From Escherichia phage vB_EcoM_G2133: a stretch of 64,000 bases of DNA. Each line of letters opens with the position of its first letter. Within the stretch, counting starts at the first letter, position 1. Below are positions 1,400 to 57,243 of the stretch, piece after piece. The stretch lies in the sequence record MK327928.1. The stretch is one strand, 5' to 3'. The translations under genes were made by a program, and so were the position numbers. The notes under the pieces were generated by a model. That model ran no database searches. It saw nothing but the letters and a program-made list of their open reading frames with translations, and was not told the origin of the DNA.

Positions 1400-2261
1400 T
1401 CACAATGAAGAAAATTCTTTAACTAAAGCCTGTAATGAAGCCTCTATTGGATATCCATTCTTAACTAACATTTTCCTAAACATCACATGTTTAGGACGAT
1501 TATATGATATCCACAATTCATACAATTTATCTTTATTATCCCAATGATAACCTTTTCGTCGAGATGCTATATGAGCTTTTCTAATCTCCGGATTTTTCCA
1601 ACTAGCAGCTACTGAATTTGATATAGCTATTTTATATTCAGGTTTTGATAAAGCAGCACGAACAGCCTTTTGGTGTTTAATTTTATTTTCTTCGTTATTA
1701 AACCATTCCCTTGAAGCCATTGAAATTTTTTGTTTTGTTTTAAAATTATTTAATCTTTCTTTGTTATCTTTCCTATTTTTTGCTACTGAAAAATATTTTA
1801 ATGCCCTTTCTCTAGCAGCATTTCTATTTTGCGGATTTGAATAATACTGTTGAAGCCTTTTTGATATTGTGTCACTTACATCTTGTTTTATAAAACTATA
1901 CTCAGCAGCTATTAAATCAACTTCGGCTAAAGATAAATTTTTATATGTTTTTCCTGACATCATTCTATTTAAAGCATTTAGCATTTAGCATTTTTCCATT
2001 TTTACCTTTTGCTAATAAGAAATGTGCTTTAAAATGATTAAAATGACTTAAATTAACTAAATTCCATGTAGATTTTAAATATTCAGGAAATATTGATTTA
2101 GGAAGCACGTGGTGTGCTTCCGTTTTACCTGGAGTTTTAACAGTTGAATTCATAGAAATAAAATTAATGTAAGACTTGGCGTCTTCTTCACTCAACGCTA
2201 ATTTTTCAACTAATTCCTTTATTAAAAATTCATCATTAATGTCAAGTTTAAAATTCTTCAC
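1400..2261 (-). pseudogene. HNH homing endonuclease (Mob-like, HNH N-domain plus basic repeat C-domain) split into two frames
   Basis: ORF 1965..2261 carries the HNH motif (HHVLPKS...NLVNLSHFNHFKAHFLL); ORF 1400..1984 carries basic repeat motifs like those in the C-terminus of the HNH gene at 21868..22647. The two overlap in different frames inside a heptamer repeat. Confidence 0.55.
1974..1994. repeat. Tandem heptamer repeat GCATTTA GCATTTA GCATTTT at the HNH frame junction
   Basis: Direct read of the sequence at 1974-1994. Confidence 0.85.
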
Positions 2262-20230: not shown

Positions 20231-20254
20231 AAAAAGGGGACCTCTAAGGCCCCT
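20231..20254 (-). terminator. Intrinsic terminator
   Basis: GGGG(a)CC-tctaa-GGCCCC hairpin followed by U5 on the minus-strand RNA; lies just 3' of ORF 20263..20748. Confidence 0.5.
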
Positions 20255-20262
20255 TTATGCTT

Positions 20263-20748
20263 TTATTCCATTTCTATTATATGCATGTTCTTTTTGCTAT
20301 CAAAATATATGTTTTTAACTGTTAACTCCGAATTAATTGGCAATAAAAACTCTCTTTCATAATCTACCATACAAAGGTTATCATAAAGCTTGTTAAGCTT
20401 ATCATCGTCAGTTTGGCCAGATTCTTCAATTGCGATTAAATTTTCTAAAATGTCAATCATAGCAGTCGAATAGTCAAAAACGTTTGCATTTTTTAACACT
20501 ACTAAAACATTAGTCATATAGCGTTCTGCAGCAAACGTTTCAGCTATATGAGACTCACTGCTAAAGGAAGTTATTCTTTTAAATTTGATTCTCCTATTAA
20601 CTTCAAACTTATAAGATAGCACTTCCTCTATTGTAAGTCCTCTAAAAAGTGTGTCTTTAATCTCAAGTTTGTCTTTAATGTAATCATTAACACGCTTATG
20701 ATTAAAATTATTAATTTTGTTGCCAAGGCATTGCATTAAAATATGCAT
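20263..20748 (-). CDS. Hypothetical protein
   Basis: 161-aa ORF with ATG start and GAGGAG Shine-Dalgarno, flanked by its own promoter and terminator. Confidence 0.5.
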   Translation of the reverse strand: MHILMQCLGNKINNFNHKRVNDYIKDKLEIKDTLFRGLTIEEVLSYKFEVNRRIKFKRITSFSSESHIAETFAAERYMTNVLVVLKNANVFDYSTAMIDILENLIAIEESGQTDDDKLNKLYDNLCMVDYEREFLLPINSELTVKNIYFDSKKNMHIIEME

Positions 20749-20850: not shown

Positions 20851-20871
20851 AAAAGGAGCCCGAAGGCTCCC
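20851..20871 (-). terminator. Intrinsic terminator
   Basis: GGAGCC-uucg-GGCUCC hairpin followed by U7 on the minus-strand RNA. Confidence 0.6.
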
Positions 20872-20873
20872 TA

Positions 20874-21884
20874 TCATTTATAATAACTTCGATGGTTTTC
20901 AAGATAGACTTTCTCAAGGAAGTCATCCCAAAAACCCATGTCCACTTTTTGCTGCATACCGTTCTTAGAAGCTTCAGTAGATGCTGCTTCTACTTGATCG
21001 ACCACATCTTCCAAAAACTCTTGAACGGTTTTAAATGGATGTTTACCCAACTTCACGTCGAGAATAAATGGAGCGTCTTGAAGTGGATAAACCAAGTCGC
21101 CAGTTTTGTAAATTTCCAATAGTTGAAGTCCACCACGACAGGCATGGCTCAGAGCTTTCCAGTCAATACCTTCATTGGCTTCGGCCTTACGAGCACGTTC
21201 ACCATATTCAGCATCTAATTTGTTCAGTGACTGCTTAAGCTCAATAAGAGAAAGAGTTGTCTGATATTTACGACCCAACACTGTGTAAAACGTTTGTGGG
21301 CCTGTTTTCTCATGATTATGGAACACCCATTCACAGAATTCGTTTTCTGGAAGACGATGCTTAATATCTTCAACTTTAGTACGACGCTGCTTAATGGAAC
21401 CGTCTTCTTGGTAATCAACCCATTGCTCAGGGATTTGATTAACTACTTTCAATACATCACGTAATGCAGCCAAACGAGAACCCTTGACACCGTATTTAGA
21501 AGCTTGCTTGCGGACATATCCTAAATAGGATTTCATGTTAGTCGTATAAAAACGAGAACGGTTGTCTTGAATAAACTTCCATACATCAGGCAAATCGGAT
21601 TTAACCACTAGTTCAGGTGGAGTGTGAAGCATATCCAACGCTACAGTTTCACCATCTGCCGCTAATTTAAAGAAATATTTAAGACTGTATAGTTCATGGT
21701 CAATATCATCTTTAGTGTTTTTAGATGATGTGTTGTTAGTGTTTTTACTCATGTGCTCTTTGACATTTCCGATAAGAATATCACGAGCAGGAGGAACAAA
21801 AATTTCTTTAAAATCTACATCAGATTCTGGGGTAGAAGTTCCATAAAGATGACTACCAAAATAAGACTTAACTACAGTTTTCAT
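20874..21884 (-). CDS. Nucleotidyltransferase-fold protein (Pol-beta-type GS...DxD motif), function unknown
   Basis: Motif FGSHLYGTSTPESDVDF (G-S, ten residues, DxD); start is uncertain (ATGs at 21884, 21899, 21908) and overlaps the 3' end of the HNH gene. Confidence 0.55.
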   Translation of the reverse strand: MKTVVKSYFGSHLYGTSTPESDVDFKEIFVPPARDILIGNVKEHMSKNTNNTSSKNTKDDIDHELYSLKYFFKLAADGETVALDMLHTPPELVVKSDLPDVWKFIQDNRSRFYTTNMKSYLGYVRKQASKYGVKGSRLAALRDVLKVVNQIPEQWVDYQEDGSIKQRRTKVEDIKHRLPENEFCEWVFHNHEKTGPQTFYTVLGRKYQTTLSLIELKQSLNKLDAEYGERARKAEANEGIDWKALSHACRGGLQLLEIYKTGDLVYPLQDAPFILDVKLGKHPFKTVQEFLEDVVDQVEAASTEASKNGMQQKVDMGFWDDFLEKVYLENHRSYYK

Positions 21885-22647
21885 TATTAGACCTTTCATA
21901 ATCTTCATTAAATTGTACAATCAATCGATGATAATTAGATTTTGGATATCCTAATTTACTTATATAAGTTCCGAATGACCCACGTTTAGGTCTATTTAAT
22001 TTAATCCATAACTTATAAAGTAAGTCATAGTCTTGCCAATGTTTACCAGTTCTTTGTCTAATTTTAGATGAATTTGATTGTTTCTTTTTAGTTTCAAAAT
22101 TATTCAAAGATTTTTTGACTGCAGCAGAGTGTTTTTCTTTAACTCCCGGTCGTTTAAAAGCAGCTTTCACCCCTTTAGATATTTTTTCTTTAACTTCCGG
22201 TTTGTTTTGTGCTTCTAACTGGGATTCTGAAATTTTAGCCCTTATTTCAGGAAGACTTAATGTTATCGAACGTTTTTCTCTGTATTCATTAGACTTCCAC
22301 ATTTCTTTCATTGTATTAGAATGTATTTTTGAAAATTTTTCTCTAACTAACTGATATCCTCTTGAAGTTAATTTGAGATTTCTTCCTAAAGAATCTTCTC
22401 CAAAATTATAAAATGACCACCATGCATAAATTAATCCAGGCGAATTATAATGAATTTTAGCTAAAAGCCAATGGGCTATAAAATGCTCTCTAGCTGTTAA
22501 TAAAACTAGATTATCAGAATCATCATTACCACCAATACAAGATGGAATAATATGATGCTTTTCCGTATAAAAATTTAATTTAGATTTATCTAATTTTCTG
22601 AGTTTTCCTTTCTTAATTAAATTATTATATACTTTAGTATAATTCAT
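21868..22647 (-). CDS. HNH homing endonuclease (Mob family; mobD-like by position)
   Basis: 259 aa; HHIIPSCIGGNDDSDNLVLLTAREHFIAHWLL HNH motif and lysine-rich C-terminal repeat motifs. Confidence 0.7.
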   Translation of the reverse strand: MNYTKVYNNLIKKGKLRKLDKSKLNFYTEKHHIIPSCIGGNDDSDNLVLLTAREHFIAHWLLAKIHYNSPGLIYAWWSFYNFGEDSLGRNLKLTSRGYQLVREKFSKIHSNTMKEMWKSNEYREKRSITLSLPEIRAKISESQLEAQNKPEVKEKISKGVKAAFKRPGVKEKHSAAVKKSLNNFETKKKQSNSSKIRQRTGKHWQDYDLLYKLWIKLNRPKRGSFGTYISKLGYPKSNYHRLIVQFNEDYERSNNENCS

Positions 22648-22721
22648 TGGTTCTTCGTCTCATTTAATTTTGCTTTGCATTTATAACACATGTCTGTTCC
22701 ACTTGAAATAAACATATTTCC

Positions 22722-23255
22722 TCACTTCGAAATCATAGTTGGAATGACAGAATCAAGATAAGTCTTTAGCGCAATAGCTTCGTCTTTGGTAAATGTGACA
22801 ATATGTGATCGAAAATCGTCAATTTGGCGAATAGTTAAGACATCTCCCTCTTCATAACATTTTGATACATTTAAAAGAGTTTCATCATTCTGATTGCAAG
22901 CGTTAGTAATAATAGCATTGCAATTTTTGAGCCATTTTAAACTATGTTTTCTTTCATTAGAATAATAAAAATATTTAATCTTAGCTATAAAACTATCCCA
23001 ATGGATAACTGATAAACACATTGACTCACTTTTAATATTAAATCCTGGGCATGAAGAATAAAAATGAATTTTGTGCTCATCATTGATGCTTACAATTTTA
23101 TCAGTATAAGGATATTCAATTTGGGTTAAATGAATAATTTCACTAGATGTAAAATACAGCATATCGTCTTCTTGCGTCAAACGATACATATTATTTACTT
23201 TTTCTATAGCCAATTCACCAAAAAGTGGACTAACTTCTAATACTAATCGTTTCAT
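22722..23255 (-). CDS. Hypothetical protein
   Basis: 177-aa ORF with ATG start. Confidence 0.45.
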   Translation of the reverse strand: MKRLVLEVSPLFGELAIEKVNNMYRLTQEDDMLYFTSSEIIHLTQIEYPYTDKIVSINDEHKIHFYSSCPGFNIKSESMCLSVIHWDSFIAKIKYFYYSNERKHSLKWLKNCNAIITNACNQNDETLLNVSKCYEEGDVLTIRQIDDFRSHIVTFTKDEAIALKTYLDSVIPTMISK

Positions 23256-23256
23256 A

Positions 23257-23523
23257 TTAATCCTTTTTATTTGCGCTGATTTGTTCTAAAATTTTAGAGT
23301 ATTCCTTTGTATCAGATTTACGTACAATCGATACGCTATACGGCATACTATCGGTGTCTTTTATAAAGCGTTCCAAATGACACTCTAATAAAATTTCTGG
23401 ATTATAAATCGTGTACATCAAATTACCTGTTGCTCCACGATATTGACAGATTTCTACTGATTGAACATCATTCCATAATTTTGTTAAGACCAAATCACCT
23501 ACTTCTAATTTAGGAAAGCCCAT
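23257..23523 (-). CDS. Hypothetical protein
   Basis: ORF trimmed to the ATG at 23523. Confidence 0.4.
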   Translation of the reverse strand: MGFPKLEVGDLVLTKLWNDVQSVEICQYRGATGNLMYTIYNPEILLECHLERFIKDTDSMPYSVSIVRKSDTKEYSKILEQISANKKD

Positions 23524-23524
23524 G

Positions 23525-23710
23525 TTATTCACCAATTAAAGTTTCAATATAAGAATCAAGATTTACTTTAGCTTCTTCCATAAGAGTTTTGTATTTAATC
23601 TTGTTGGCATGTCCGGAGAAAGCTGATTCATCAATAATTGTTGATGTATGAACAGCTTTACTATACGTCTCAATTAATTCTCTTAATTTAAAAGCCTGCT
23701 CACTTGTCAT
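23525..23710 (-). CDS. Hypothetical small protein
   Basis: 61-aa ORF; its ATG overlaps the stop of an upstream mini-ORF (TAATG). Confidence 0.4.
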   Translation of the reverse strand: MTSEQAFKLRELIETYSKAVHTSTIIDESAFSGHANKIKYKTLMEEAKVNLDSYIETLIGE

Positions 23711-24037: not shown

Positions 24038-24232
24038 TCAGTTTTCATTATTCCACCTAATCATTTCAAGATATTGAACTAACTTAGCTTTGGATTTATC
24101 CAAATCCTTTTTAGCTGCTTCTATACCGTCGTATGAATATCCTTCACAATGCTCAACTGCTAATTGATATGAATCTATTTCAATATCACGTGCTAATTTA
24201 ATGATTTTTTCAAACTGTTCGCGTGTTAGCAT
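24038..24232 (-). CDS. Hypothetical small protein
   Basis: 64-aa ORF with ATG start. Confidence 0.4.
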   Translation of the reverse strand: MLTREQFEKIIKLARDIEIDSYQLAVEHCEGYSYDGIEAAKKDLDKSKAKLVQYLEMIRWNNEN

Positions 24233-24694: not shown

Positions 24695-24716
24695 AAAAAA
24701 GTCTCCCGAAGGAGAC
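24695..24716 (-). terminator. Intrinsic terminator
   Basis: GUCUCC-uucg-GGAGAC hairpin followed by U6 on the minus-strand RNA. Confidence 0.6.
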
Positions 24717-24721
24717 TAATG

Positions 24722-42658: not shown

Positions 42659-43318
42659 TTAATTTATTAGACTTCTTAAACGAACAGAAGTCATAAATGG
42701 AAATTTTTCTAAAGTTGGCTTTCGCCAATATCTTGGATGACAAGTTGATTTAAAATCAAGAACAATTTTCTTTGCTTCATCAATAGTGTTAACTCCAAAG
42801 TTATCTAACATTATTTTCTTTTCTTTTTCCCACCGTTTATTAGCTAAAGCAGATTGAAGCTTTTTGTTTTTAAATGTGTCATTTTTTCTAGAATGAGTTG
42901 TTCCTTGTGTCGGACTCCATCCTCTTCCTAAAATAAATCCCTCAGGAATTATATCTCCATCATGCAATTTTATACATCTTTTACCATTATTATAATATTT
43001 TCGTCCAGTTTGTGTATTTGAAATATTATTTGCATGTTTTCTTTTTAACCAACCATAAACTTTATTATTTCTCCTAACATATTTAGTTGAAACCGTCATT
43101 TTTATGGCTGCATAAGATAATTTTAAAGAATTTGGGTGTATTTTTACTAATAGCTGATGTGCAACATAATGCTCTTCTGGAGTTAAATCAACCAAGTTAG
43201 AAGCATCATTACTACCGCCTAAACATTTCGGAATAATATGATGTCTTTCTTTATATCCAGTAAGGGCTCTATTGCGAGCCCTATCAATTAGTGAATTATA
43301 AATTTTTTCATAATTCAT
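42659..43318 (-). CDS. HNH homing endonuclease (Mob family) inserted between genes 2 and 3
   Basis: Start at the ATG at 43318, overlapping the gp2 stop (ATGA); motif [32 protein letters not shown]. Confidence 0.65.
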
Positions 43319-54779: not shown

Positions 54780-56584
54780 TGAAACAAAATATTAATATCG
54801 GTAATGTTGTAGATGATGGTACCGGTGACTACCTGCGTAAAGGTGGTATAAAAATAAATGAAAACTTTGATGAGCTTTATTATGAACTCGGTGATGGTAA
54901 TGTTCCATATTCAGCCGGTGCCTGGAAAACTTATAATGCTTCATCTGGGCAAACATTAAAAGCTGAATGGGGAAAATCATACGCTATTAATACTTCGTCT
55001 GGAAGAGTAACACTGCAACTTCCTAAAGGAACTGTTAATGATTATAATAAAGTAATTAGAGCTAGGGATGTATTTGCAACATGGAATGTTAATCCAGTTA
55101 CTTTAGTAGCCGCTTCTGGTGATACTATCAAAGGATCATCGTCATCGGTTGAAATTAACGTTCAATTTAGTGATTTAGAGCTAGTTTATTGCGCTCCGGG
55201 TCGTTGGGAATATGTCAAAAATAAACAAATTGACAAAATTATTAGTTCAGACATTAGCAATGTAGCTCGTAAAGAATTTTTAGTCGAAGTTCAAGGACAA
55301 ACAGACTTTTTAGATATTTTCCGTGGAACTAGTTATAATGTTAATAACATCAGAGTAAAACACCGCGGTAACGAATTGTATTACGGCGATGTTTTTAGCG
55401 AAAACAGTGACTTTGGCTCTCCAGGGGAAAATGAAGGAGAATTGGTTCCTCTTGATGGATTTAATATTAGATTAAGACAGCCTTGTAATATTGGTGACAC
55501 TGTTCAAATTGAAACATTTATGGATGGTGTATCGCAGTGGAGAAGTTCATACACAAGACGTCAAATAAAAGTATTAGATTCAAAATTAACATCAAAAACT
55601 TCTTTGGAAGGAAGTATTTACGTTACTGATTTATCGACAATGAAATCAATTCCATTCTCCGCATTTGGATTAATTCCAGGAGAACCTATTAATCCTAATT
55701 CTCTTGAAGTTCGTTTTAATGGAATTTTACAACAACAAGCTGGAACAGCCGGATATCCTCTGTTTTTATGTGAAGGCGCTAATTCAGATACACAAGAAGG
55801 ATGTATATCTCTTGGTGGTGAATGGAAAGAATCAAACACAGATTATTCTATAGAATATGAAGATGGAAAACCGATCAGTCTTTTATTTGATAGAAAATTT
55901 GAATCAGGTGATATAATCGTTATAACATGGTTCAATAATGATTTAGGAACTCTTTTGGAAAAAGATGACATCATTGAATTAACTGATGAACGCTATGTTA
56001 GCAAAGGATCATCTACTGAAGTTACTGGTGACGTAGCCTTAACTGATTTTGATAAAATCGGTTGGCCAAATGTTGAAAAAGTTGATTCTTATACTAGAAC
56101 ATATAATTCAATATCATCTATTTTCGATAGCATTTATCCCATTGGTTCAATTTATGAAAATGCTATAAACCCAAATAATCCGGTGACTTATATGGGATTT
56201 GGTTCATGGAAATTATTTGGTAAAGGACAAGTTTTAGTAGGATGGAATGATGATGTTACGGATCCAAACTTTGCATTAAATAACAATGATTTAGATTCTA
56301 GCGGAAATCCTTCGCATACTGCCGGTGGAACAGTTGGAACAACATCAGTGACACTTGAGAACGCAAATCTTCCTGCGACTAAAACTGATGAAAAAGTTTT
56401 AATTGAAGATGAAAACGGATCAGTTATTATTGGAGGTTGCCAATATGACCCAGATGAAACTGGTCCTATATATACAAAATATCGTGAAGACTACGCAACA
56501 ACAAACTCTTCACATACTCCTCCTGCTAATATTAGTAATATTCAACCGTCTATTACTGTATACCGTTGGATAAGGATTGCATAA
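54779..56584 (+). CDS. 10: Baseplate wedge and tail-pin protein gp10
   Basis: 601 aa; size and order match T4 gp10. Confidence 0.88.
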
Positions 56585-57243
56585 TGAGTTTACTTAATAA
56601 TAAAGCGGGAGTTATTTCCCGCTTAGCAGATTTTCTTGGTTTTAGAACTAAGAAAAATGATATTTCGGTTATGAATAATCAGCCGGTAGGTGCTGTAACA
56701 ATTTCACAAATAGCAAAAGGTTTTTATGACCCAAATGTAGAATCTGCTATCAATGATGTTAGAAATATGGCAGAGCAACAGGTTGGAGCTGTATTAGTTA
56801 ATATAAGTGGCGTATCTCCTACTGGCGTGCAACAAACCGACTATTGGTCATTTGAAGGAACTGTTACTGATACTTCAGCTAAACCAGGTGACCCAGTTAT
56901 TGTTAATATGTTTGGCATTCCTGTTAAAGCTACTAATGGAATGACTTCAATCGAATTTACCAGTGCCGTTAGAACAGCTCTGCAGGAAATGGTTGCAAAA
57001 TTTATCGCAATTGATTCATTTGAAGACCATCCTACCATAGGAAATAAAATACAAGTTAAGTATTTAGATAACCAAGAACATATCTTAGAACAATACTCTG
57101 ATAAAGGAATTACTTTCAAACAGGAAATAATTTCTCCTTCTAAACCTGGGTATGGAACTTGGCAATTATTAGGTGCGCAAACTGTTACGCTAGATAGTCA
57201 CACCCAACCTACAGTATTTTATTATTTTGAGAGAATAGCATGA
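56584..57243 (+). CDS. 11: Baseplate wedge and tail-pin protein gp11
   Basis: 219 aa from the ATG at 56584 (track start is TTG); matches T4 gp11. Confidence 0.88.

Follow-up and report, generated by a model that had tools for sequence, protein, structure and literature searches.

How does the gene for a homing endonuclease come to end inside the start of its neighbor? That is the question raised by one locus in the 64,000-nucleotide stretch of Escherichia phage vB_EcoM_G2133 (sequence record MK327928.1) that we analyzed, and which we call the window. Here, the 3′ end of an HNH endonuclease gene runs into the 5′ end of a gene for a nucleotidyltransferase-fold protein, an arrangement that the original prediction attributed to insertion of the endonuclease gene beside or into a gene start that was already there. 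Our answer is that the two genes are mobD and nrdC.11, both familiar from phage T4, and that mobD arrived by insertion accompanied by the loss of other genes. We put the probability of this joint reading, identity and history together, at roughly 0.85.

Identity is the simpler half. The window comes from a T4-like Tequatrovirus, and on sequence and position, we identify the HNH gene and its downstream neighbor as T4 mobD and nrdC.11. The DNA of the locus is 96 to 97% identical to T4 and RB3, and the encoded endonuclease is 100% identical to MobD of RB3 and 99.6% to that of T4 over 259 amino acids. The reading frame first proposed for the HNH gene, 21868-22647, holds: it has 259 codons, lies on the minus strand, and carries HHIIPSCIGG...NLVLLTAREHFIAHWLL. 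The label given to it, Mob-family HNH, was apt, the gene being T4 mobD itself. It also sits where an ortholog of mobD should, with mobD.1 (T4_y05I) on one side and nrdC.11 (RlaP) on the other, as assigned by Pfam. Gene order, strand, and the 17-nt overlap are the same as for T4 mobD (T4p096, NP_049710) and nrdC.11 (T4p095); the window differs from T4 by 3 to 10% in the flanks and in having extra ORFs nearby, one ART-like and 161 aa long (20263..20748) and others at 23257..23710.

Much of this is already known. Between them, reviews and the reference annotation cover mobD, the family to which it belongs, the site of insertion, and the overlap with nrdC.11. One review describes mobD as a free-standing HNH gene within a promoter-less cassette, inserted between nrdC.11 and mobD.1, and gives ‘ND’ for the activity of its product and ‘unknown’ for the target (PMC2988022). 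The locus has little importance beyond T4 housekeeping, and our view of homing endonucleases is unchanged by it. What comparison with relatives adds is the exact boundaries of the cassette (Table 1), a history of insertion plus the loss of two genes, natural deletion derivatives, a mobD-linked allele in the overlap that offers a concrete candidate for the MobD target, and a possible coupling ORF upstream. They might steer a straightforward test of cleavage by MobD or of marker exclusion.

Table 1. Features of the mobD–nrdC.11 locus, in window coordinates.
Feature	Position	Strand	Basis or remark
mobD.1 (y05I-like)	22722..23255	-	Upstream flank of the cassette; Pfam T4_y05I_N E 2.5e-38, T4_y05I_C E 4.7e-21
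Mini-ORF, 23 codons, unannotated, chimeric, MFISSGTDMCYKCKAKLNETKNQ*	22644..22715	-	Alignment to PYps10T, DalCa, and bov10K1; translation
T4-type mobD cassette	21864..22696	-	No counterpart in empty-site Tequatroviruses; boundaries from BLAST and alignment
mobD, free-standing HNH homing-endonuclease gene, 259 aa	21868..22647	-	phrog_655 ‘homing endonuclease’, E 1.3e-56
AAGG, Shine-Dalgarno-like element for nrdC.11	21892..21895	-	Inside conserved mobD ‘EDYER’ codons, 7 nt 5′ of the ATG
14-nt direct repeat AATAATGAAAACTG	21875..21888; second copy 24039-24052	-	Exactly two in the window against a chance expectation of 0
mobD/nrdC.11 overlap, 17 nt, out of frame	21868..21884	-	Read from the sequence
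mobD-linked variant patch, nrdC.11 nt 9-21	21864..21876	-	ACT GTA GTT AAG TCT; empty-site ACA GTA ATG AAA AGC
nrdC.11, RlaP/Pol-beta-fold nucleotidyltransferase gene, 336 aa	20874..21884	-	Pfam PF10127 E 3e-11; phrog_388 E 6e-136
Predicted intrinsic terminator after nrdC.11	20853..20872	-	8-bp stem, 5 GC pairs, then a T-run

Whether there is an overlap at all depends on where nrdC.11 begins. Three in-frame ATGs of the nucleotidyltransferase ORF, at 21908, 21899, and 21884, lie inside mobD, just as the original prediction of starts within the HNH coding region had it. Comparison with relatives that lack mobD picks out 21884 as the ancestral one. It is the conserved nrdC.11 start in the more than 40 related loci compared (35 IMG/VR loci plus GenBank relatives), and in every genus this is where the N terminus of NrdC.11, MKT[VI][MV]K, starts; the ATGs at 21908 and 21899 sit in mobD-specific sequence that is missing from mobD-less relatives. 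We take ATG 21884-21882 to be the true start. The AAGG that precedes it probably acts as the ribosome-binding element of nrdC.11, and alleles at empty sites have AAGG at the identical 7-nt spacing. Could the overlap nevertheless be an artifact of start choice, with nrdC.11 really beginning 3′ of the mobD stop? Start codons in database entries are predictions rather than mapped positions, and the GenBank entry for PTE-Eco15 uses a different ATG, upstream, giving a 41-nt overlap. We find the idea barely credible, however, for all genera share the residues MKT[VI][MV]K[SGA]YFGSH beginning at the 21884 ATG, no further in-frame ATG follows 21884 in the nucleotidyltransferase ORF of the window until codon 45 (translation MKTVVKSYFGSHLYGTSTPESDVDFKEIFVPPARDILIGNVKEHM...), the stop codon of the upstream gene at empty sites overlaps the same ATG, and the Pfam RlaP match starts at residue 7.

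With nrdC.11 starting at 21884, the overlap with mobD is therefore 17 nt, the last five codons and TAA stop (21870-21868) of mobD sharing their bases with codons 1 to 6 of nrdC.11. The T4 RefSeq entry NC_000866.4 has an identical overlap (mobD 56429..57208, nrdC.11 55435..56445), and Mosigvirus a20 has one of 17 nt too, ending GTT AAG. In mobD of the T4 and a20 types, there is no stop codon of its own 5′ of nrdC.11; the TAA is formed within nrdC.11 codons 5 and 6 (GTT AAG). In Gaprivervirus VR26, a frame difference of 1 nt where the two genes meet leaves mobD with a TAA of its own, which overlaps the nrdC.11 ATG by only 1 nt (TAATG). The overlap of mobD with nrdC.11 in the window is genuine, though nothing out of the ordinary.

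What, then, occupied the site before mobD? The T4-type cassette, with both junctions, is present in 46 GenBank phage records, as against some 435 GenBank Tequatrovirus records in which the site is empty and a membrane-protein gene abuts nrdC.11. Close relatives are thus polymorphic for the presence of mobD at one fixed site, as is characteristic of homing endonucleases; the same overlap without variation in HNH presence, the outcome that would have counted against insertion, is not what the 46 occupied and ~435 empty sites look like. Direct abutment of the membrane-protein gene and nrdC.11 is found in Tequatrovirus-, Gaprivervirus-, and Mosigvirus-like loci, and the membrane-protein gene lies upstream of nrdC.11 even in loci with ~60% NrdC.11 identity. 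The ancestral order was membrane-protein gene then nrdC.11, with stop and start codons overlapping. It is exactly this junction that mobD occupies in all three genera. In Gaprivervirus, comparison of VR26 with VR7 reveals a clean insertion of ~770 nt directly 5′ of the nrdC.11 ATG, and the original view of an endonuclease gene placed beside or into an existing gene start is supported. In Mosigvirus a20, the order is membrane-protein gene, mobD, nrdC.11. The a20 and VR26 alleles share insertion point and protein architecture with the window (amino acid identity to its MobD of 74% and 80 to 81%, respectively), and both phages retain the upstream membrane-protein gene; these are therefore simple insertions.

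Not so in the T4 lineage. Here, alignment with mobD-less relatives, which places the cassette at 21864..22696, indicates replacement rather than simple insertion. Relative to empty-site genomes, the window is missing a 173-aa paralog of y05I/mobD.1 and the 153-aa membrane-protein gene, and tblastn found no relocated copy of either elsewhere in the window. All that remains of the y05I-paralog gene is its first 19 nt. This kept start, consisting of the ribosome-binding region and six codons, now opens the mini-ORF of Table 1, whose TGA overlaps the ATG of mobD (ATGA). The mini-ORF junction occurs in exactly the 46 cassette-bearing records, and the mini-ORF is invariant in 46/46. When we searched for the source of its tail (window 22645-22700) by sensitive blastn, matches were limited to those same 46 T4-type records; a short ATGTGT match allows the speculation that the tail is the decayed 3′ end of the membrane-protein gene.

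The same history could be read backward, with mobD ancestral in the Tevenvirinae, the empty sites being repeated losses, and the overlap old and stable, carrying no insertion scar. Diverged alleles (74–81% amino acid identity, dS >1.7) do sit at the same junction in three genera, and loss can be seen directly: F13076, G8, and RPN226 have a matching 2.16-kb deletion but retain the mobD-type 5′ end of nrdC.11, and recombination between the 14-nt repeats explains these natural mobD-deleted variants. There are, moreover, empty sites with the mobD-type patch in ESh36, TB004, ECO07P1, 26 Mosigvirus records, TH15, and ESCO47. Yet no remnant of mobD is to be found in the ~435 Tequatrovirus records or in most of the loci sampled from other genera, and distant T4-like phages have non-endonuclease ORFs or nothing at this position, never mobD. 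The 5′ junction of the T4 type falls within codon 7 of a gene that empty-site genomes have intact, and diversity within the cassette is 26 to 50 times below that of its flanks. An ancestral mobD seems to us quite improbable, and we keep to insertion with gene loss.

The product of the inserted gene belongs to the HNH (His-Me finger) endonucleases, its H-N-H motif mapping to a predicted beta-beta-alpha core. The core spans approximately residues 27 to 59, with H31, H32, N46, H55, and H59 invariant in an alignment of 46 sequences. An AlphaFold model (pLDDT 93.7) has strands at 29-32 and 47-50 followed by a helix at 52-65, and is all-helical outside the core. The Pfam HNH match scores 18.2 bits, under the gathering score of 21.4, and a sequence search of solved structures returned a local, marginal alignment to the HNH domain of a group II intron maturase. 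A Foldseek search with the model gave no PDB match at E <0.1; HNH matches were local, with E ≥0.5. We do not claim an I-HmuI-like architecture for MobD since I-HmuI was missing from the Foldseek matches. Nor do we place MobD among NUMOD3 proteins: Pfam gave no NUMOD3 match to it even at E up to 10, although many of its sequence homologs carry Pfam NUMOD3 (PF07460) or HNH (PF01844). NCBIfam had no match for either MobD or NrdC.11. MobD resembles I-HmuI and I-TevIII (HNH-NUMOD3) in that an N-terminal HNH precedes an extended helical region that presumably binds DNA, and it differs from them in falling under Pfam thresholds for HNH and NUMOD3 and in being free-standing, not intron-encoded. Measured against the a20 and VR26 alleles, dN/dS is 0.07 to 0.08 (dS above 1.7), which suggests that MobD function has been maintained across alleles.

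Where might such an enzyme cut? Comparing four mobD-type with six empty-type Tequatrovirus alleles, we find seven fixed differences in the 1011 nt of nrdC.11, at nt 9, 13, 15, and 18-21 only. One of these, the T at nt 15 (window 21870), makes the TAA of mobD. The overlapped bases belong to a mobD-linked allele that departs from empty-site alleles at seven positions out of 13; they are not untouched pre-existing sequence. At the same positions, a20 is also unlike L018, a Mosigvirus allele, and we regard the patch as a candidate target-site or immunity region for MobD. In Mosigvirus, the patch allele encoding valine at position 5 (V5) occurs without mobD in 26 records and with it in three, and Val-5 is also present in distant relatives; perhaps, then, the patch is a long-standing polymorphism and no adaptation for immunity. 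In these mosaic genomes, private substitutions also cluster at other places in nrdC.11. VR26 has a synonymous cluster of its own at nrdC.11 nt 24-33, which we considered as independent evidence for a target site and down-weighted because of similar private clusters at other places in other alleles.

The cassette itself is strikingly uniform. Across eight mobD-positive genomes, its nucleotide diversity (pi) comes to 0.0015, whereas the flanks reach 0.039 (nrdC.11) and 0.079 (mobD.1). Between the window and T4, there is a single difference across 21832-22727 (~900 nt), as against 3 to 16 per 100 nt outside, which suggests a young cassette on diverged backbones. That mobD is more uniform than its flanks is a sign of horizontal spread; it is compatible with homing, not proof of it, and low diversity is also expected of a segment of single origin that has no homolog with which to recombine, with no endonuclease bias involved.

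We can imagine how the pieces fit together. mobD sits, as a promoter-less cassette, immediately 5′ of the nrdC.11 start codon, and the overlap would be a by-product of an insertion with a minimal footprint. The 3′ end of mobD would serve nrdC.11 as both ribosome-binding region and first codons, so that the downstream gene stays expressed. In a mixed infection, MobD would nick or cut genomes that lack mobD, at or close to where nrdC.11 begins, after which recombinational repair would copy the cassette along with a short recoded patch; the patch would then render mobD-positive genomes, and some secondarily empty ones as well, resistant to cutting. Homing with a target at the 5′ end of nrdC.11 has, in our estimation, an even chance of being correct. 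The literature we searched contained no report of preferential inheritance of mobD with co-conversion of flanking sequence in mixed infection.

A less active mobD can also be envisaged: an inactive or domesticated relic, spread by ordinary recombination in its flanks, next to a patch that is a neutral old polymorphism. Such a gene may be kept since its 3′ end supplies the translation-initiation region of nrdC.11, and the AAGG element does fall within mobD coding sequence. The V5 allele is widespread in Mosigvirus without mobD and present in distant phages; T4 already has one defunct endonuclease, I-TevIII; and the review entries for MobD activity and target still read ‘ND’ and ‘unknown’ after decades of work on T4 (PMC2988022). 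A relic is nevertheless hard to square with strong purifying selection across all 259 codons, with invariant HNH catalytic residues, or with near-identical cassette copies on backbones that differ by 4 to 8%, and its relatives MobA and MobE both act as nickases and show high-frequency inheritance (PMC2988022). We consider a relic unlikely.

How mobD is expressed is the remaining part of the problem. A sigma-70 promoter scan returned 24 sites versus 23.7 expected. The motif TATAAATG at 22678-22685, upstream of mobD, was rejected as a late promoter, its count in the window being that of chance (20 versus 19.2). The predicted terminator beyond nrdC.11, also annotated in the DalCa and G28 records, appears to close the transcription unit that contains mobD, and for mobD neither an internal terminator nor a hairpin turned up. 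Folding of the mobD and nrdC.11 initiation regions (z +0.3 to +1.3) gave no hairpins like those that regulate I-TevI or Aeh1 mobE. In 2010, mobD was counted among the free-standing endonuclease genes of T4 without a recognizable translation-initiation region (PMC2988022). The mini-ORF may offer one: termination at its TGA followed by reinitiation would provide low-level translation of mobD, a coupling we propose tentatively, the odds leaning somewhat against it. We are similarly hesitant about the combined proposal that the 13-nt patch in nrdC.11 is both recognition or cleavage site and immunity site for MobD and that the mini-ORF is the device by which mobD translation is initiated. Were it true, it would supply a directly testable target and an expression mechanism for an endonuclease listed as uncharacterized for more than 20 years.

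A characterized gene of the Mob family is T4 mobE, which lies between nrdA and nrdB and is, like mobD, a free-standing HNH gene in a polycistronic unit with no promoter of its own; the start codon overlaps an upstream stop in both (UAAUGA in mobE, AUGA in mobD), and mobE too varies in presence among T-even phages (PMC2988022). MobE has its target in the adjacent gene, which for MobD is a candidate only, nrdC.11; nicking of nrdB and high-frequency inheritance have been demonstrated for MobE, whereas for MobD such activity is putative (PMC2988022). The layouts differ as well: an intergenic middle promoter for nrdB comes after mobE, while mobD overlaps the gene downstream.

T4 has 15 homing-endonuclease genes (PMC2988022). 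The original prediction counted four more endonuclease genes besides mobD and called the window unusually dense in them; our search of the window located two further Mob-type HNH paralogs, at 42659..43318 and ~1412..2213.

The HNH ORF and the nucleotidyltransferase gene downstream of it are mobD and nrdC.11 of phage T4, already annotated and reviewed. Our locus is 96–97% identical to those of phages RB3 and T4, its HNH protein matches RB3 MobD at 100% and T4 MobD at 99.6% identity, and T4 RefSeq (mobD 56429..57208, nrdC.11 55435..56445) has the same 17-nt overlap. The window itself is a mosaic Tequatrovirus identical to no GenBank record (top match ~96% over 25 kb). In a review of T4 mobile elements (PMC2988022), mobD is entered among the free-standing HNH genes, with activity 'ND', target unknown and insertion site nrdC.11/mobD.1, and is described as a promoter-less cassette in a polycistronic message. 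We found no later paper characterising MobD in the literature searched. Promoter-like matches occurred at chance level only, and folding revealed no significant hairpins over the mobD and nrdC.11 start sites.

The original prediction had the 3' end of the HNH ORF overlapping candidate ATGs of its neighbor, and its positions are correct as written: in-frame nrdC.11 ATGs at 21908, 21899 and 21884 all lie within mobD. Which is the start? Judged by 35 IMG/VR loci and several relatives in GenBank, it is 21884: the conserved N terminus MKT[VI][MV]K[SGA]YFGSH begins exactly at its equivalent. Upstream of this point the sequence is unrelated between site types, and the two other ATGs, 21899 and 21908, belong to sequence specific to mobD. 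With 21884 as the start, the two genes overlap out of frame by 17 nt; a single GenBank record (PTE-Eco15) starts nrdC.11 at the 21908 equivalent. An AAGG at 21895-21892, inside the conserved EDYER codons of mobD and with the same 7-nt spacing as at empty sites, is presumably the nrdC.11 Shine–Dalgarno.

Features of the mobD–nrdC.11 region, its relatives and its surroundings (window positions unless a locus is named)
Feature	Position	Strand	Remarks
Intrinsic terminators	24700-24717; 20853-20872	-	bracket a unit with mobD.x genes, mobD and nrdC.11
mobD (HNH ORF)	21868..22647	-	259 aa; motif HHIIPSCIGGNDDSDNLVLLTAREHFIAH; stop TAA at 21870-21868
nrdC.11	20874..21884	-	next ORF downstream; RlaP/Pol-beta-fold nucleotidyltransferase; Pfam PF10127 (E 3e-11); phrog_388 (E 6e-136)
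Unannotated mini-ORF	22644..22715	-	23 codons; product MFISSGTDMCYKCKAKLNETKNQ*; TGA overlaps mobD ATG as ATGA
Direct repeat AATAATGAAAACTG	21875-21888; 24039-24052	-	exact, 14 nt; 0 expected by chance
Empty site with mobD-linked patch, Shigella phage ESh36	L044 2452-2551		membrane gene directly, then nrdC.11
Empty site with mobD-linked patch, phiE142	L019 3440-3536		membrane gene directly, then nrdC.11
161-aa ORF	20263..20748	-	between nrdC.10 and nrdC.11
Terminator-like hairpin	20237-20253		after 161-aa ORF
Two small ORFs	23257..23535; 23525..23710	-	92 aa; 61 aa
Mob-type HNH paralogue	42659..43318	-	53% identity with MobD residues 1-75
Mob-type HNH paralogue	~1412..2213	-	matches N- and C-terminal parts of MobD

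How mobD came to lie here emerges from relatives without it. When the GenBank phage collection was searched junction by junction, the T4-type 3' junction turned up in 46 records and the 5' junction in the same 46, against about 435 Tequatrovirus records with an empty site and about 8 records with a deletion variant. Empty sites have, in front of nrdC.11, a 153-aa membrane-protein gene (phrog_944) with a stop that overlaps the nrdC.11 ATG and, before that gene, a 173-aa mobD.1 paralogue (Pfam T4_y05I_N, T4_y05I_C). The membrane-protein gene directly adjoins nrdC.11 in Tequatrovirus-, Gaprivervirus- and Mosigvirus-like loci, and lies upstream even at ~60% NrdC.11 identity, so we take this adjacency as ancestral. 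By these comparisons mobD is an insertion, supporting, with refinements, the proposal that it landed beside an existing gene start. In Gaprivervirus, a clean mobD insertion of ~770 nt between the membrane-protein gene and nrdC.11 distinguishes VR26 from VR7, and Mosigvirus a20 has the order membrane-protein gene, mobD, nrdC.11, with our 17-nt overlap. These are simple insertions, whereas the T4-type locus is not a bare one.

At the 5' boundary, homology to empty-site genomes stops after ATGTTTATTTCAAGTGGAA (22715-22697), the first 19 nt of the 173-aa y05I-paralogue gene. The first six codons of the mini-ORF are thus a remnant of that deleted gene; the mini-ORF is identical in 46/46 T4-type records and absent from the T4 RefSeq annotation. 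At the 3' boundary, alignability returns near the AAGG, with full identity from nrdC.11 nt 22. The 64-kb window contains no copy of the membrane-protein gene or of the y05I paralogue, and the T4-type locus is therefore an insertion plus the loss of two genes.

We compared nrdC.11 (1011 nt) in four mobD-type alleles, from the window, from T4 and from two deletion derivatives, with six Tequatrovirus alleles of the empty type. Only nt 9, 13, 15, 18, 19, 20 and 21 show fixed differences (ACT GTA GTT AAG TCT in the mobD type, ACA GTA ATG AAA AGC in the empty type). Further downstream there is shuffled polymorphism only. It is the T at nt 15 that gives mobD its TAA, and the overlapped bases travel with mobD; a20 and the Mosigvirus allele L018 differ at the same positions. 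The overlap is 17 nt because T4- and a20-type mobD, lacking a stop upstream of nrdC.11, run to the first out-of-frame stop. In VR26 one extra junction base gives mobD its own in-frame TAA and a 1-base overlap with the nrdC.11 ATG. The recoded patch may be the target of MobD or an immunity site; this reading is tentative because the patch could also be old polymorphism.

Loss has left traces too. F13076, G8 and RPN226 lack mobD through mobD.2a and keep the mobD-type nrdC.11 5' end. Their 2.16-kb deletion lies between the AATAATGAAAACTG copies, which sit at two mutually unrelated gene junctions, mobD/nrdC.11 and mobD.3/mobD.2a, and it joins mobD.3 to the tail end of mobD (...NNENCS*). Empty sites bearing the patch are rare in Tequatrovirus (3 records: ESh36, TB004, ECO07P1) and common in Mosigvirus (26 records vs 3 with mobD). 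Precise loss of mobD, partial co-conversion or an old polymorphism could each account for them. Occupied, deleted and patch-bearing empty states fit a cycle of gain, loss and resistance, and are also compatible with the patch being old polymorphism. The exact boundaries, linked patch, putative coupling mini-ORF and microhomology deletions are new details, and modest leads.

In eight mobD-bearing Tequatroviruses, the cassette (the T4-type mobD segment, 21864..22696) has a nucleotide diversity of 0.0015, compared with 0.039 for nrdC.11 and 0.079 for mobD.1; the low-diversity stretch coincides with the cassette. Window and T4 differ once in the ~900 nt cassette and 3–16 times per 100 nt outside. 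MobD alleles (T4 type, a20 at 74%, VR26 at 80%) give dN/dS of 0.07–0.08 with dS saturated, and HNH residues are invariant in 46 homologues, many with Pfam NUMOD3 or HNH. Low cassette diversity, dN/dS and invariant residues are signs of mobility and function. An AlphaFold model (pLDDT 93.7) predicts a beta-beta-alpha core followed by an all-helical body; Foldseek with this model returned local, non-significant HNH matches only.

The two Mob-type paralogues tabulated agree with the earlier view that the window holds several endonuclease genes. The 161-aa ORF matches the C-terminal part of phrog_832 'RNA polymerase ADP-ribosylase' (E 6e-24; no Pfam match); it is found in Salmonella phage F13076 and not in T4, and DalCa has other small ORFs (DUF4031 and others) in its place. 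The segment 23254-23699, holding the two small ORFs, is present in PYps10T and RB3-like phages and missing from T4 (OL964735), so it is another indel of this hyperplastic region. Public annotation calls mobD.1 and mobD.4 homologues 'molybdopterin-guanine dinucleotide biosynthesis protein MobD' (L003 3564..4109, L001 4455..4637 and related GenBank records) and nrdC.10, nrdC.11 and neighbors 'thioredoxin'; these are name-propagation errors.
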